From Escherichia coli (GTDB taxonomy: Bacteria > Pseudomonadota > Gammaproteobacteria > Enterobacterales > Enterobacteriaceae), in assembly GCF_030384885.1 (NCBI RefSeq), contig NZ_CP128614.1: a stretch of DNA of 64,000 bases; one strand, 5' to 3'. Positions 21,001-30,000 of the stretch are shown piece after piece. Made by a program: the position numbers. How positions within the stretch are numbered: position 1 is the first letter of the stretch; each line of letters begins with the position of its first letter.

Positions 21001-24000
21001 AGATTGGCCGAAGATTTACCTGAAGATTATAAAGTTATGCAACAACAATCTGATGATTGGTCATTCCCTACAATTGATTCTCAGTCTATGCCTCCAGAGT
21101 TTGTGCGGAAAAATGGTATATCTAAAATAAAAGAGATTGATTTAGAAATGGATATTGGTGAAATAACTACATCGTCACCTACGATTTCAAGTCAAACAAA
21201 ACAACTAAAAATGGGCTCAATGCATCAACAAGTGATAGATGCATTTTTATTTTCAATTATTTAATTTTTTATCGTATGCCGTAAACGGTTTGAAGAGTGA
21301 ATTAACGGCATTGATTCAAGTTAAAACTGGCTAGTTACGGCCAGTTTCCCTAGGGAACTATAGTTTTTATCTATACAACGTGAAGCTAAAGAAGAGTGAA
21401 TGATTGCCTTTTTTGTAACTAATTTTATTTTTAACTCCTCAAGCTTGTCTTTTAATGATTTATTTTCCTCTTCAAGAAATGATATTTTTACTAGTGATGC
21501 CCTTAATAAGTCATTGAGCTGGTGATGTTCTGAAGCCATTTGACGGAGTCTTTTTCGAGGGGGCTGAAAGCGTTCTGCAGGCACTGTTAGTGGTATAAAA
21601 TATGCCCACGACTGTATTCCTGTTGTGTGGTAATTCCTCAATGAAAAGAAGTGAATGCTTATTTTATTCTTACTATCTGGCCTTGTTTTAAAGCTTTTAT
21701 CTCTTGTTCCAGCGCTTCAATACGTGAACGTGCAACCCTCAGCGCATGGGAGAGCTGATGATGTTCAGCCGCCATCACTTCCAGACGACGTTTCATATCA
21801 GATGCTTTTACACGGTACTGAATTTTCACTTTACGCTCTTGGTTAAATTTATGTCGCAGGGCTTCCTGTGACTGATGAGTTAGCCTGCCCTGAGGGGATA
21901 TTTTTAACCGCAGAATTTCCTCCTGGACGCGTGACTTAAATGCCCCGTAGTAGTAACAGGTTCCGTTTCCCAGCCCGGCCTCCTCTTCAACAGCACGCAC
22001 CGACAACTTTCGGTTGTCAGGGATACGTTTTGTCTGACCATCAAGGATCCGTTGTAGTGCAGCTTCAAGTTTAAGGAGTGTATTTTCTGATTTGCTCATA
22101 CGCCTGTCACCTTAATGGGATGTTCATATGTGTCATAGCCAATCCCATGATCCTGCATAACCCGTTCCGCAGCCCGGATTTGAGTGATACAGTGGGCATA
22201 CTCACTGATGCTTAGATCCGTCTGTTGCTGAAGATACATTATCAAAGCATTATGACGTTGCTGCCACCACATGGCCTTATCCGTATCGATAATGCTTCCA
22301 CCGCTACGACAATCCACGCAGAATGCAGGGTTGACCACACCATCCATATCGCAGTCATAGCCGTTTTTGCAGTAACTATGTAGCGTTCCATGCAAAGTAA
22401 GTCGTTTTTCCCTGACCAGTCGATAGAGATTATCCCAGCTACTGTAGATCACAGGCTTATCATTACGCATAGCTAGAATGGCTTTGCCAAAACTTCCGCT
22501 GAGTTGACTATCCCCGTTAAACCAGCTGTCAAAAAGACTAGTTGTCTGTTCGAGCCTTGCTTCATTCAGTAATTTAATCAGTTCGCTGTCCACCTGTATT
22601 GATTGTAGCCGTGCTTCAACAGCACCGTTCCCATACCATTCACTCATTCGCAGGCTGAGGTGTTTAAACTGTTGTTTGATTGCGATGGGGTGTCCGAGCT
22701 GGTTACGTACGGCAAAGCAGGCGAAAGTTCTTCGAAACTGATGGGTTAAAAGGGGCCAGGCCTCTCCTGTTCTGATCTTATCTTCTATAGCCCCCCTGTC
22801 CCGAGGGTTAAGCTGACGGCACTCTGCGAGTGCCTGTTTATCAACAATAGCACCCACATGTCTGGAAAAATTTTTTAAACGGTCGTTCCACTTGCTGCGT
22901 GAAATGAGGACAGGCAGGTTTTTTCTTTGGTACTGGCTGAGCCACAGATTTCCTGCTGTCTCAGTAAGCGTATCAGACTGCCCTGGGTCGTTGCTGTGAA
23001 CCGCTATTTTTAACAGCTGTTCACGAGCACACGCGCTGAGAGCCGTCGCAAGCGATATGGCTTTTTCAACAATAGGGCTTGCCAGCCATTCTTCATTTTT
23101 TTTCCCGGCAGCCAGTTTGTGGGTTGCTGCGCTTACCGAGTGAAAATCCTGTCCATTAATGGTGTAGGTGTGAAAACTGTCCACATGCAATTCAAATATT
23201 TCGCTGACTCTCATTCCTGTGAAAGCACCACAACAAATAAAACAGGCTGCCTGAAGTTGAGCACGAAAACTGACGAGCCAGTTACCGTCTGCTGCGCTAC
23301 TGGGCAGGAGTCCTGTTCCGGTGAGATGGTTTTTGATTAGGGTATTTTGCGACCGGGGTGTCGCTTTATTAATTTCTTCTACATATTCTTTTGAACATAA
23401 TTTCCCCTGTCCGTTAGTCAGCCATGTCCACTTACCTGTAAGTATTTTATAGTCAACAACGGCACGCCCGATATCATAATTAGACTGCAGTTCACGTTCT
23501 AGCTGGGCTAGTGTTTCTCTGTGGGGCCATGCAAGCTCGACAAGTCTAACGGCTTCTCCATAGAGTATATTTGCTATTGCCTGGGGGATGGCCAGGGTTT
23601 GCCTGTGTTCTGCTTTATTTTTAGCTGACAGTTTTTTGGCTGTCTGTTTGTAGTTCAGCTGTGGCAGGTCAAGCTGGAAAGGAAGCCATGAATTTAGTCT
23701 TTCGACTGACTGTAGTGCAGAGAAAATCAATTCAACAGTTCGCTTACTAAAGGCTTCACGTTCGATATCGTTTTGTAGCTTTTGCCATATCTCGGGTTTA
23801 TTGAAGTCAGACAGGCACGTGCTGCCACTATGCAAAAGCGTTAATAAACTCTTTTTTAACCCTAAATTGAATCGGGAGGTCAGTGTTGACAGCTTGCAGT
23901 CTTTTCCGGAGTGATAATTTTGCTCAAATATCCATCCATATACGATAAGCTTCGCCTGAAGGAGAAGCGCCGGAGCGGACTCCAAATAGGTAAAGTTAAA

Positions 24001-27000: not shown

Positions 27001-30000
27001 ACGGTAGCGATAGGCAGGTTTTAATGCTTTTACTGCAGGAAAGTTATCCCATGCAAGTTCTTCAGACTCCAAAAAGCACCAGTAAAATTTTAACGCTCTT
27101 GCATAAGAGCTAAGGTTTTCCAGTCTTTTTTCAGCTTTGAGATGTATAAGCCATTGATTTACAGGTTCTATATAATTACCATCATAACCATACAATGTAG
27201 GAAGTGGACCCACATTTCGTCCCCCCCTGAATTCAATCGATTCATCTGTAGTAATGATATCACCACCAATAAATACATCTGCTGAGTTGAGTAAATAAGC
27301 CAAGAATGCAGACCTCCAATGGTTGTAAACTTCTGCCATGCTCATTCTCCAAAGCCTGATGCTGTTTCCCCGGAAGATAACAAGAAAAGACCGGGTGTGT
27401 GGCTATGAAGAAGATCCTGTATAACTTGAAGAACATGTCCCCGGACATTATATTTCAGTGACATACCTTAGTTATGTTTAGCTCATCTTCAGCGAAAAGC
27501 CAGTACCAGATTAATCATCTGGAAGAGGTGAGCATCTGTTAAGTTTAGACAATATTTCCCGGAACGAGAAACTAGCTGGAAAAATGGAAGAGGAAGGTAT
27601 GAATCAGCGTTTCATCTGGTTTGCGGAAAACAGAGACAAAAAGTATAGGGAGGATATCGATGCTAACATATTTTCTCAATGAGATAATGTGTGATAGTAA
27701 TTTAATGCTTATGTAAAATTGGGCTACCCATTGAAAGAACCAAGAATCAATATAACTGGATAGATGTTTTGGATGAATTGTTCCTTCAGAAATAAGTGGG
27801 GTCTACATACTTTATCAGGTTCAACAGTCTGATACAAAAGATAGTACAACCTCAGTGCCTGGCTGTTTAGCGCTGGTTTTAAAAGGTTAATCAAAGGTTT
27901 TGAAGGAAGGATGATTGAGCAGTAACAGCCTTATGAAGGTTGTATACATTGATACTGCGTGCCCGGAGAGAAAATGAGAGGGTGAGGCATCGGTTTCACC
28001 CTCTCATCAGCCGCTGATATGCTGATGGAAATAAACCACTAGGGCGTACTACTGTATGCTAGATCCCTTTTAATTTAATCATCTTCTGATTTGTATACAA
28101 CAACTTTGATTGAGATTTTATTTTTGACAGACGTAACTTATTTTGGCTGAAAAGTTGTATTCGCTACCCTCATGAAATTAAAATATGCGGAGTACTTTCT
28201 GCCCTGAAAAAGACGCTTCCGTGAAAAGCAGATAAACCCTGATGAGAAAAGATGGTGATCACTAACTGACTAGTAGTGATGTTAATTCACGTTTTTTGAT
28301 TTTTAAGTTCGATACAACTACGTGATAATTTATAGTTTTTATGGGAAAGTGATGCGTTTTACTGAGGGGTGGCATTCTTCAGTAGGGTAAAAATTAATCT
28401 TCCTACAAATTAGTTCTTATATATTGAGATGCTTGGAAAGAATCCGGACTTATGAGTATACGCCATGCTCTAAACGCAAAATTAATGATACGACCATTAA
28501 ACCTCCCTCTTCAGGGTCAATGGCTTCAGTGGGTGTTTTCCAGGCTAATGCTCTGTTAGAGGTATTGCACCATTTCAAAGCAGAATCTCTGTTCCCCTCA
28601 AAAAGCGCTAACGCTTTTAGATGTAGAACACTTTTGGTCATCATCTGTGATCCTGAATGACTTTTTAGTACTTCAAAAAGGTTGCTTCGTAGAGTCATTG
28701 TTTCGGGTCGTTACGAACTCAACTGTGGCAACCTTGCTTGTCATGATTTCCGAACCTACCTGTCGGGGCACAGATAATGCCAGCAAAGATACTATTCCAT
28801 ACGCTATCCCAAAAAGTTACTTTTCTATAGCAACCTAAACCAGTGTGGTTGTGACCAGTCCCCGGTATTAAACACCATAGTCAGTTAGTAATATCAGTTT
28901 TCTTTCTTTATCCCATTTTGCCAGTCTATTGCAAACTCCGCTGGCGTCAGAAAATTCAGTGAGGAATGAGGCCGACATGCTCTGCACTCTGACCTGATAG
29001 CATAAAAAAACTGGCTTTTTAGGCCAGTTTTACAGAGTTGCAAAGGTGTAGGTATAGTTTTTCTACACTAACGTGTCATGGTAGGTTGAGCACTGACGGG
29101 TTGAAGAATTAGTCCAGGTCGGAAGTCCACGTCCAGTCAGAATGCGGCCTACCCAGCTCTGCGTAAGAGACGGTTGGGCGACAAGGACTGTGACCGGTAG
29201 CTGGTGTTCAGCAATGAACATTCTAAGCTGGTTGAGAACCTGTGAAGCCTGATAGTGCATCTCAGGGTTTTCGATCAGCGTATCGGACATCTGAATGAAA
29301 TGATGTTCGCTGATATTTGTGCCGTTACGTACTGCCCTGATCAATGCCATCAGAAATAGGTGAAGAAGAGAATGGGAGTCTTTACCGCCACTGTATCCCA
29401 CGCACATCGTCCATCCGTCCGTAATAGCCTGATAAATAGCAGATGTGGCTGACGTGACCAGAGAAGAAAGACTCACAGTCTCCTTTTCATCGGTATAGTT
29501 CAGATCGGCATCGGTTGTCAGGGTCTCCCAAACATCAGCCCATTTATCATGTTTCAAAATGGCAGCATTAGCCGCCTCAGGAAAAATAACTTCTGAGGGT
29601 AATTCAAGGAATGAGTCACTTTTTTCAATAAACATATATTTTCCTGAACCACGGCATATGCTGCATCACTGATATTTTTATTAGAACTTTAAAATAACTA
29701 CAGCGCAACCATTTAGCGAAATTATATTAAATCAAAATCACGCAAATTTAATTCTTAAATAGATTTAAAATAAAAACCCATTGTAATTTAATCTCCCAGC
29801 ACAGCTATTAGATATAGGTTGGTGGTGTAATAAAAGCCGTGACATTTGTTTTCAACTCAGACAGCGGAATTGAAGGAGTGTTAAGAGTCATGTCATCACC
29901 ACAATGGCGTGGTAGAGCAGAAAGCTGAAATGAATCTTTCATCACCCTAATAACCGGGCATTCCGTACGTGCTGATGGCATTACTTCCCGCAGCATCGCT

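Follow-up and report, generated by a model that had tools for sequence, protein, structure and literature searches.

A four-gene recombinase cluster beside an anti-phage block on an IncHI2 plasmid, probable core of a strand-biased circularizing integrative element

What moved a block of anti-phage genes into an IncHI2 plasmid is the question raised by a group of minus-strand genes at 21659-27345 of the window (the whole stretch of 64,000 nucleotides of Escherichia coli contig NZ_CP128614.1 that was analysed). In the very probable reading (about 0.92), the four genes are the recombination module of a strand-biased circularizing integrative element (SE), namely SE-EasCA1043, of which a copy is inserted in a DndC-like PAPS-reductase gene of the plasmid. 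Neither this element, which has been published by name, nor its kind is new. SEs are a recently recognised class of mobile element that is seldom annotated as yet; RefSeq labels for such core genes are 'hypothetical protein' or 'site-specific integrase'. The element carried a block of approximately 20 kb from an Enterobacter chromosome into the IncHI2 plasmid, and its identity as an SE explains both the entry of the CBASS block into this plasmid and its seeding into gor of many Enterobacter lineages. IncHI2 plasmids spread mcr-9 and other resistance genes.

The gene cluster and its products

The ORF listing places four co-oriented, closely packed genes on the minus strand: intA (25966..27345), encoding a tyrosine recombinase of ordinary size (459 aa); tfp (24225..25961), encoding a protein that has the tyrosine-recombinase fold but an active site that is degenerate (578 aa if translation starts at the ATG of 25961, or 591 aa for the maximal ORF at 24225-26000); intB (22096..24216), encoding a large tyrosine recombinase with a Cys-rich module at its C-terminus (706 aa if translation starts at the ATG of 24216, or 720 aa for the maximal ORF at 22096-24258); and srap (21659..22099), encoding a small recombination auxiliary protein (146 aa) with a coiled coil at its C-terminus. 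Proteins of exactly these 459-, 578-, 706- and 146-aa forms are present in 42, 177, 322 and 462 public contigs, respectively, and the gene models are therefore real. The junction of intA and tfp is TGA-AAGT-ATG, that of tfp and intB is TAA-GGATCACT-ATG, and that of intB and srap is an ATGA overlap; this tight spacing fits an operon with translational coupling and upholds the description, in an earlier note on this DNA, of consecutive coupled genes accompanied by a gene for a small coiled-coil protein. The same note called the proteins unusually large, but a Tfp of at least 550 aa and an IntB of about 700 aa are normal for SEs, so the sizes in the window are not unusual.

The order intA-tfp-intB-srap, in one orientation and near the motif C end of the element, is that of SE cores. 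The sole departure from the core layout of SEs is the 1.74 kb between the start of intA (27345) and the end of the element (29083), by which the earlier placement of the module at the edge of the cargo block has to be corrected. This leader from motif C to intA (27346..29063, minus strand, 1.7 kb) contains a truncated Xre/ParS-type antitoxin ORF (28450-28698) that is present in all copies and matches NCBIfam NF049845 at 1.1e-11, under the family cut-off; a RES toxin partner is absent beside it. On the other side of the cluster, orf106 (21321..21641, minus strand) contains a srap-like C-terminal coiled-coil remnant at 21450-21557, with 50% identity to the C-terminus of Srap over 36 aa (E 1e-8 pairwise, 1.3e-5 by tblastn).

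The earlier view that the outer two proteins resemble tyrosine recombinases and that the middle one is less clear was borne out. IntA matches the Pfam family Phage_integrase (PF00589) at 4.8e-8, and its residues R240, K278/K281, H389, R392, H423 and Y432 are invariant in an alignment of 27 homologues. Searches of Pfam and NCBIfam with IntB gave marginal matches only, but in an alignment of 22 homologues R336, K367, H492, R495 and H519 are invariant and Y528 is at least 90% conserved; the catalytic residues of the IntB profile align with those of XerA, XerC-like, HP1 Int and Gp33, and the AF2 model of IntB matches Cre with probability 1.0. Judged from these alignments, IntA and IntB retain the complete tyrosine-recombinase catalytic set (RHRY) that is characteristic of SE recombinases. 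Srap is 42% (E 2e-35) and 36% (E 6e-25) identical to two Srap orthologues listed in Additional file 3 of PMC10214605. A weak match of Srap to TraB was disregarded as a reflection of the coiled coil.

Tfp matched nothing in Pfam or NCBIfam, and single-sequence searches of PDB sequences with IntA, IntB and Tfp found nothing meaningful; the Tfp profile gave, against PDB, only a weak and probably spurious match to penicillin acylase and an N-terminal match to IntI4 (E 0.94). Compared with loci in Additional file 3 of PMC10214605, Tfp gave E values of 1e-86, 5e-87 and 8e-58. The tyrosine-recombinase fold was confirmed for Tfp and IntB, which also have the C-terminal Cys-rich module in common. Tfp is without Arg I and both His, so that the fold is kept with an incomplete motif as in other SEs, in the literature of which Tfp is described as being without the RHRY motif. 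Among 34 homologues with identities down to approximately 20%, one Arg (R360) and one Tyr (Y391) of Tfp are invariant, and both align to Arg II and the nucleophilic Tyr of IntB in a colinear profile alignment (P = 6.7e-5); a conserved Lys is located in the beta-hairpin. With hhalign, only the N-terminal core-binding domain of Tfp aligned to the IntA family (E 0.0019) and the alignment of IntB to the IntA family was weak; therefore, the Tfp-IntB alignment is the one basis for mapping the active site of Tfp. Retention of an invariant Arg II and Tyr in Tfp is a minor new point. A speculative and rather unlikely reading of it is that Tfp is not a dead recombinase but provides part of an active site, or a tyrosine in trans in the manner of Flp, to a mixed IntA/IntB/Tfp complex in which cleavage would be possible for one pair of strands only, and which would be the physical basis of strand bias.

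Termini, target sites and cargo

The insert occupies positions 8720-29083 of the window (20,364 bp), of which the element itself, from C' to C, is 8726-29083 (20,358 bp, GC 42.02%). Motif C (29064..29083, minus strand; TACACTAACGTGTCATGGTA on the plus strand of the window) is the left, intA-proximal end, and motif C' (8726..8745, minus strand; ACTGTAACAGTGTGGTAGTA), conserved in all copies, is the right end; each is the same as its counterpart in the published SE-EasCA1043. The first positions of C (TACCATGACAC...) and of the reverse complement of C' (TACTACCACAC...) agree at 8 of 11, as in the imperfect terminal inverted repeats C/C' of 13-19 bp by which SEs are recognised. In 11 copies, which between them occupy two different targets, motif C lies at the junction, and homology to one chromosomal copy (L012) ends exactly at 8726. 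The 26-nt left end had no match when a single genome of each species was scanned.

The disrupted gene belongs to the DndC-like PAPS-reductase family: its 3' part (6887..8719, minus strand), which has an NCBIfam DndC-like match, is 100% identical to the intact 794-aa gene in many IncHI2 plasmids, and its 5' part is at 29084..29635 on the same strand. The earlier note had proposed a comparison with related plasmids that lack the block, and this comparison yielded both the empty site and the ends of the element: the PAPS-reductase site is uninterrupted in locus L002 and, within PLSDB, in at least 775 records, whereas a single plasmid in PLSDB has the element. The empty plasmid site contains the TCAACC of the attL side and is without the GTTTGT of 8720-8725. 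A second target is the 3' end of gor, where the element is present with 99.96-100% nucleotide identity in many Enterobacter chromosomes and which is intact and empty in other genomes of Enterobacter and of Leclercia. The hosts are Enterobacter, Escherichia and Salmonella contigs and the IncHI2 plasmid, within the Gammaproteobacteria as for other SEs.

Inside the insert is a type II CBASS operon (12249..16846, minus strand, by PADLOC) of four genes, all on the minus strand, that encode the CapV phospholipase (15776-16846; 5.5e-107), the CD-NTase (14475-15776; 6.9e-215), the Cap2 E1/E2 protein (12706-14475; 1.1e-274) and the Cap3 JAB protein (12249-12719; 3.6e-57). Also on the minus strand are a HEC-08/DUF3644 candidate defence protein (9085-10191; PADLOC HEC-08, 5.7e-70) and a 407-aa protein (10690-11913) with a weak match to a 4TM effector. 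In a segment of mixed strands (17868..21264), Pfam and PADLOC/NCBIfam-type searches found a YgiW/YdeI-like OB-fold protein (18347-18709), a capH-like HTH control protein (18902-19213, minus strand), a VspR-like protein (19205-19882) and a ResIII helicase (19870-21264). As annotated by these searches, the cargo is a type II CBASS with further candidate defence genes, an anti-phage block of approximately 20 kb; with the empty site demonstrated and these genes inside the insert, the suggestion that the recombinase genes were the mobility module that delivered the defence genes is supported.

Spacers and predicted movement

Each end of the element is flanked by a 6-bp spacer. The attL spacer beside C (29084..29089, minus strand) is TCAACC in element orientation, the native target sequence and the 'fingerprint' that the circular form would copy; the attR spacer beside C' (8720..8725, minus strand) is GTTTGT in element orientation, the 'footprint' of the previous location. 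The attL spacer is the native local target in all 11 junctions read, and donor-type spacers occur at attR only in these 11 junctions at two targets, a count in which many junctions may descend from a common ancestor instead of from independent insertions. In plasmid copies the attR spacer is GTTTGT or ATTTGT, which is the spacer that flanks motif C at chromosomal gor; reciprocally, TCAACC, the spacer of the plasmid site, is the attR spacer of six of ten chromosomal copies and of the published CAV1043 copy. Three or four chromosomal copies have the attR spacers TCTACG and TCTACC, for which no donor site was found; a plasmid site with TCTACG as its spacer was looked for without success. Comparison of empty with occupied sites at the two targets shows no target duplication; the 6 bp on the C side are native and the 6 bp on the C' side come from the prior location, as in SEs. 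The reciprocal spacers indicate an SE-type footprint and, by comparison of the junctions, repeated shuttling between chromosome and plasmid; read from sequence alone, they record two-way traffic and lend support, for this member of the SEs, to the copy-out model in the literature.

That model derives from experiments on other SEs, SE-EasCA1043 itself having been defined by genome comparison only (Idola et al. 2023). By analogy, IntA and IntB, with help from Srap and from Tfp, whose catalytic site is degenerate, would recombine attL with attR by exchange of one strand, and replication would then produce a double-stranded circle with a joint that holds the 6 bp formerly beside motif C; for the copy in the window, which is probably active, the predicted joint is ...CAGTGTGGTAGTA-TCAACC-TACCATGACACG... 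and the donor would be left without an empty site. For integration the circle would prefer the 3' end of gor in the chromosome or the PAPS-reductase gene of the plasmid, and integration would put the carried 6 bp beside C'. At gor, the predicted insertion point is ...GAAGAGTTTGT^GACCATGCG, after which TCAACC would be beside C'.

The same genes might instead move conventionally, in a cut-and-paste manner in which both strands are exchanged and an empty site stays behind; Tfp and Srap would then serve only for directionality or as architectural factors. Production of an empty site is not readable from sequence alone, and some GInts (genomic islands that encode a trio of integrases) do leave one; however, two-strand exchange or heteroduplex joints like those of Tn916 would be expected to place the donor 6 bp at either end, whereas native attL spacers throughout and donor spacers confined to attR match the reports for tested SEs. 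Conventional movement is accordingly given a small probability.

Relation to other elements

SE-EasCA1043 was described from the chromosome of Enterobacter asburiae CAV1043 (NZ_CP034336.1, 2990132-3010419) as an element of 20,288 bp with a GC content of 42.02%, the end of gor as attB, TCAACC as attR spacer, and Srap and Tfp proteins WP_023309561 and WP_023309559 (Idola et al. 2023, Mob DNA 14:7, Additional files 6 and 8). The copy in the window shares with it identical C and C' motifs, the GC content, the 3' end of gor as primary target and the core genes; WP_023309560, between the Tfp and Srap accessions, is in one 90% cluster with IntB of the window, and Tfp and Srap fall in the published Tfp/Srap orthologue clusters. 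The attR spacer of SE-EasCA1043 recurs as attL spacer in the window; the copy there differs in being on an IncHI2 plasmid within a PAPS-reductase family gene, in its gor-derived spacer GTTTGT, and in being 70 bp longer (20,358 versus 20,288 bp, a comparison made through published termini and table values). The experimentally characterised SE-6283 and SE-6945 of Vibrio alfacsensis likewise have the order intA-tfp-intB-srap, imperfect terminal inverted repeats and 6-bp fingerprint/footprint behaviour, and occur on a conjugative plasmid and chromosomes, but have other cargo and other targets and are only remotely similar in sequence; of the Vibrio relatives found in the searches, the closest are 35-42% identical, with the exception of 68-70% on V. 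cholerae pNDM-116-14.

A GInt (ginABCD) resembles the window element in its four-gene module of three recombinase-like genes, one for a pseudo-recombinase, and a gene for a small coiled-coil/HLH protein, located at one end of a cargo-bearing island (PMC5385486). Its non-catalytic protein, however, is encoded by the third gene (GinC), whereas here the second gene is degenerate, and host preference differs; the separation from GInts is based on a published network analysis that sets Tfp and Srap apart from GinC and GinD, and Tfp and Srap of the window element stand in the published SE list, which makes assignment to the GInts very unlikely.

The earlier note saw a likeness to Tn554-like transposons or recombinase-in-trio (RIT) elements. 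This family assignment is wrong, and such an identity is highly improbable: Tfp, the fourth gene, the protein sizes and the published element all fit the SEs. The Tn554 family has tnpA-tnpB-tnpC only (PMC10214605), with no counterpart of the tfp that is conserved here between two recombinase genes, and its known hosts are the Firmicutes Staphylococcus and Enterococcus; Staphylococcus is absent from the ten most frequent genera among tblastn matches of IntB. RIT elements are bounded by 34-bp terminal inverted repeats and encode three recombinases of 315-410 aa, all catalytic, without a fourth gene (PMC10214605), whereas the window element has short inverted repeats, proteins of 459, 578 and 706 aa of which the second is degenerate, and srap as its fourth gene. 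A fixed plasmid backbone, such as a multimer-resolution or shufflon-type recombinase set, has nothing but the plasmid location in its favour and is refuted by hundreds of IncHI2 plasmids with an uninterrupted target and by the same module in chromosomes at gor, this insertion polymorphism and the catalytic tyrosines of the outer proteins being the two features without which, according to the earlier note, mobility would fail.

A sibling element in Klebsiella oxytoca (NZ_CP115680.1) has the same ends and cargo as the SE in the window, with core proteins that are only 41-45% identical; this combination of shared ends and cargo with a diverged core is a minor new point and, alongside the Arg and Tyr that Tfp has kept, offers a concrete entry for mechanistic work. 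Homology with the sibling SE begins or ends within orf106.

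Core genes and family assignment

Four consecutive minus-strand genes make up the module: intA (25966-27345, 459 aa in the ORF list), tfp (24225-25961, 578 aa from ATG, 591 aa as the maximal ORF), intB (22096-24216, 706 aa from ATG, 720 aa as the maximal ORF) and srap (21659-22099, 146 aa in the ORF list). The proposal of consecutive genes on this strand, four counting the small one, is borne out by the ORF list, by exact copies of the IntA, Tfp, IntB and Srap proteins in 42, 177, 322 and 462 public contigs, respectively, and by the junctions between the genes, which are in order TGA-AAGT-ATG, TAA-GGATCACT-ATG and an ATGA overlap. 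The order of the products is an ordinary recombinase, a protein with the recombinase fold but an incomplete motif, a large recombinase and a small coiled-coil protein. The core module is genuine and of a known type, that of the strand-biased circularizing integrative element (SE), of which a member has been published by name.

That member, SE-EasCA1043, is located in the chromosome of E. asburiae CAV1043 with the end of gor as its attB, encodes Srap WP_023309561.1 and Tfp WP_023309559.1, has a length of 20,288 bp and a GC content of 42.0248%, and is bounded by the terminal motifs C (left, intA-proximal end; TACACTAACGTGTCATGGTA) and C' (right end; ACTGTAACAGTGTGGTAGTA) (PMC10214605, Additional files 6 and 8). 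Exactly the same termini are present in the window, with C at 29064-29083 and C' at 8726-8745; the distance from C to C' is 20,358 bp with a GC content of 42.02%, and WP_023309560.1 falls within the 90% cluster of the window IntB. Judged by this agreement of termini, length, GC content and IntB cluster, the window element is a copy of SE-EasCA1043, in which a specialist would find little surprise. The bench tests in PMC10214605 used other SE members. Matches of the window Tfp by tblastn on Alteromonas pAMDE1, V. anguillarum p292 and V. alginolyticus CP014052 are the Tfp orthologue CDSs of PMC10214605 Additional file 3, and the Srap orthologues adjoining those CDSs are 36-42% identical to the window Srap (E 6e-25, 2e-35).

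Other families of multi-recombinase elements were compared by their definitions in PMC10214605 (Table 1). Tn554 resembles SE in its 6-bp copying behaviour and in pairing a small with a large recombinase, but is without Tfp and has Firmicute hosts. In RIT elements all three proteins are fully catalytic and 315-410 aa long, the inverted repeats measure 34 bp, and there is no fourth gene. The resemblance to Tn554 or RIT proposed in the earlier note is not upheld, as neither definition fits. GInt does not fit either: its pseudo-recombinase is the third gene and its proteins cluster separately from SE. The SE definition fits in all features that can be tested from sequence.

Active sites of the recombinases

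IntA matches Pfam Phage_integrase (4.8e-8), and its residues R240, K278/K281, H389, R392, H423 and Y432 are invariant in 27 homologues. IntB gives almost no Pfam signal; among 22 homologues R336, K367, H492, R495 and H519 never vary, and Y528 shows at least 90% conservation. The IntB family profile places the same residues on the GLRxxE, HxLR and GH...Y boxes of archaeal XerA/XerC-like proteins, HP1 integrase and Brujita Gp33 with weak E values of 0.07-0.5, and the AlphaFold model of IntB (pLDDT 80) matches Cre with a Foldseek probability of 1.0.

IntA, Tfp and IntB have diverged too far for pairwise BLAST to link any of them. Profile-profile alignment finds the Tfp and IntB families colinear across 449 columns (P = 6.7e-5). 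Tfp has lost Arg I (N238 at IntB R336), His II (a variable position, R357 in the window Tfp, at IntB H492) and His III (N382 at IntB H519), and retains as invariant residues Arg II (R360 at IntB R495) and the nucleophilic tyrosine (Y391 at IntB Y528), whereas the literature describes it as RHRY-less. Both families have a C-terminal cysteine-rich module, possibly metal-binding, formed by C457/C486/C492/C495 of Tfp and H613/C616/C622/C636 of IntB. The retention of Arg II and Tyr in Tfp and the common cysteine-rich module go slightly beyond the literature. The C-terminus of the 146-aa Srap is a heptad-rich helix.

Insertion, spacers and movement

The window is DNA of an IncHI2-type plasmid. IncHI2 plasmids by the hundred agree with the window as far as 8719 and resume from about 29081, and in pAMSH1 the two flanking stretches abut within an intact gene for a 794-aa "phosphoadenosine phosphosulfate reductase family" protein, which is DndC-like (NCBIfam). 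Comparison of the junction sequences delimits the inserted DNA as the 20,364 bp of 8720-29083 and shows no duplication of the target. The comparison with related plasmids suggested in the earlier note was run and found an insertion polymorphism, the empty site being present in at least 775 PLSDB records that cover at least 80% of the length of a 47-nt probe for the uninterrupted site. Delivery of the defence genes by this module, as proposed in the earlier note, is supported. The placement of the module at an edge of the block holds except for the very edge, as the element ends 1.74 kb past the start of intA. The sole ORF of the 1.7-kb leader from motif C to intA (27346-29063) is a truncated Xre/ParS-type antitoxin gene (28450-28698) without a RES toxin partner.

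The four genes occur in one PLSDB record only, Enterobacter cloacae pMY490-mcr-9, typed IncHI2A. There (20398-26033 of locus L001) the annotation splits the core genes into seven fragments, in DNA that is 99.1-99.6% identical with indels, probably owing to assembly errors and not to real decay.

Many Enterobacter chromosomes carry the gene for an identical IntA at the 3' end of gor, and a second IncHI2 contig encodes this IntA too. The gor-side junction reads ...GAAGA-GTTTGT|TACCATGACACG... and the opposite end ...GTGGTAGTA|NNNNNN|GACCATGCG..., and the uninterrupted site GAAGAGTTTGT^GACCATGCGxTAA, encoding EEFVTMR*, is found in other Enterobacter and Leclercia genomes. In gor loci that carry the element (L005-L014, with the junction at position 8263 of the locus), the frame is rebuilt by the element end as EEFVTMTR* versus EEFVTMR*, and thus the host gor probably stays functional. 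The left end of the element mimics the final gor codons.

In the published SE model, the 6 bp beside C (at attL) are native to the target and the 6 bp beside C' (at attR) are brought from the previous location. In the plasmid copies (the window, pMY490 and L138) the attL spacer is TCAACC, native to the plasmid, and the attR spacer is GTTTGT, or ATTTGT in L138, which are the two gor variants. In the chromosomal copies the attL spacer is the native GTTTGT or ATTTGT of gor, and the attR spacer is TCAACC in six of ten loci and in the published CAV1043 and TCTACG or TCTACC in the rest; these are not counts of independent events, as junctions may have common ancestry. A donor-type spacer was found at none of the 11 attL junctions read. 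The spacers fit the SE model in both directions, and this reciprocal pattern indicates that plasmid copies came from gor and most chromosomal copies from the IncHI2 site, the plasmid shuttling the element between chromosomes. The element is useful in annotation, and it naturally records the shuttling of a defence island between chromosome and plasmid.

The attR spacers TCTACG (L012, L143, L146) and TCTACC (L139) match neither gor nor the IncHI2 site; no PLSDB plasmid has TCTACG at the plasmid target site, and no donor of either spacer was found. In the IncHI1B homologue of the plasmid target site the six bases are TCTACA. Inverted GTGTAG-like motifs just inside both termini (29046-29068, GTGTAG-N11-CTACAC at the left end; 8733-8753, CTACAC-N7-GTGTGG at the right) may be additional recombinase-binding sites.

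Cargo and related elements

The cargo consists of a type II CBASS operon (CapV, CD-NTase, Cap2 and Cap3), an HEC-08/DUF3644 candidate defence gene, a capH-like regulator, a VspR-like protein, a ResIII helicase and a YgiW-like OB-fold protein. It differs among copies, as seen in L012/L143 and L006: L012 has an IS3-family element in place of window 12203-21515 (CBASS, helicase and others), and the helicase gene of L006 holds an IS.

A sibling SE at 18281-37379 of the K. oxytoca IncHI1B plasmid NZ_CP115680.1 has a nearly identical left end (TACCATGACACGTTAACGTAGAAAAA) and a right end whose last 25 nt match the window, including the gor-type GTTTGT spacer, with one mismatch in the 20-nt C'. Its insertion point in the homologous PAPS-reductase gene is offset by about 200 bp from the site in the window, and its orientation is opposite. 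The cargo is the same, including CBASS, with a nucleotide identity of 88-94%, but for IntA, Tfp, IntB and Srap the identity to the window proteins is only 43, 41, 45 and 42%. The homology breaks within orf106 (21321-21641), just downstream of srap, the middle of which (21450-21557) has 50% identity over 36 aa to the C-terminal coiled coil of Srap; from this resemblance, orf106 appears to be what is left of an older srap after exchange of the core module. Such a swap between same-ended elements, like the reciprocal spacer ledger, would go slightly beyond the literature. The sibling SE has only 0.4 kb where the window element has its 1.7-kb leader.

The nearest relative of the core (68-70% aa) is at 11541-16308 of V. 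cholerae pNDM-116-14, an IncC NDM plasmid in which intA is cut by the IS21-family ISVch3 and the cargo is a TrlF-family ATPase. About 100 large Enterobacter, Citrobacter and Salmonella plasmids (match rows H50-H66 and H100-H112) encode "hypothetical proteins" that resemble Tfp over its C-terminal ~40% and IntB over its catalytic half, at 24-30% identity, and which may represent another SE- or GInt-like module, or its remnant, on IncHI2-type plasmids.
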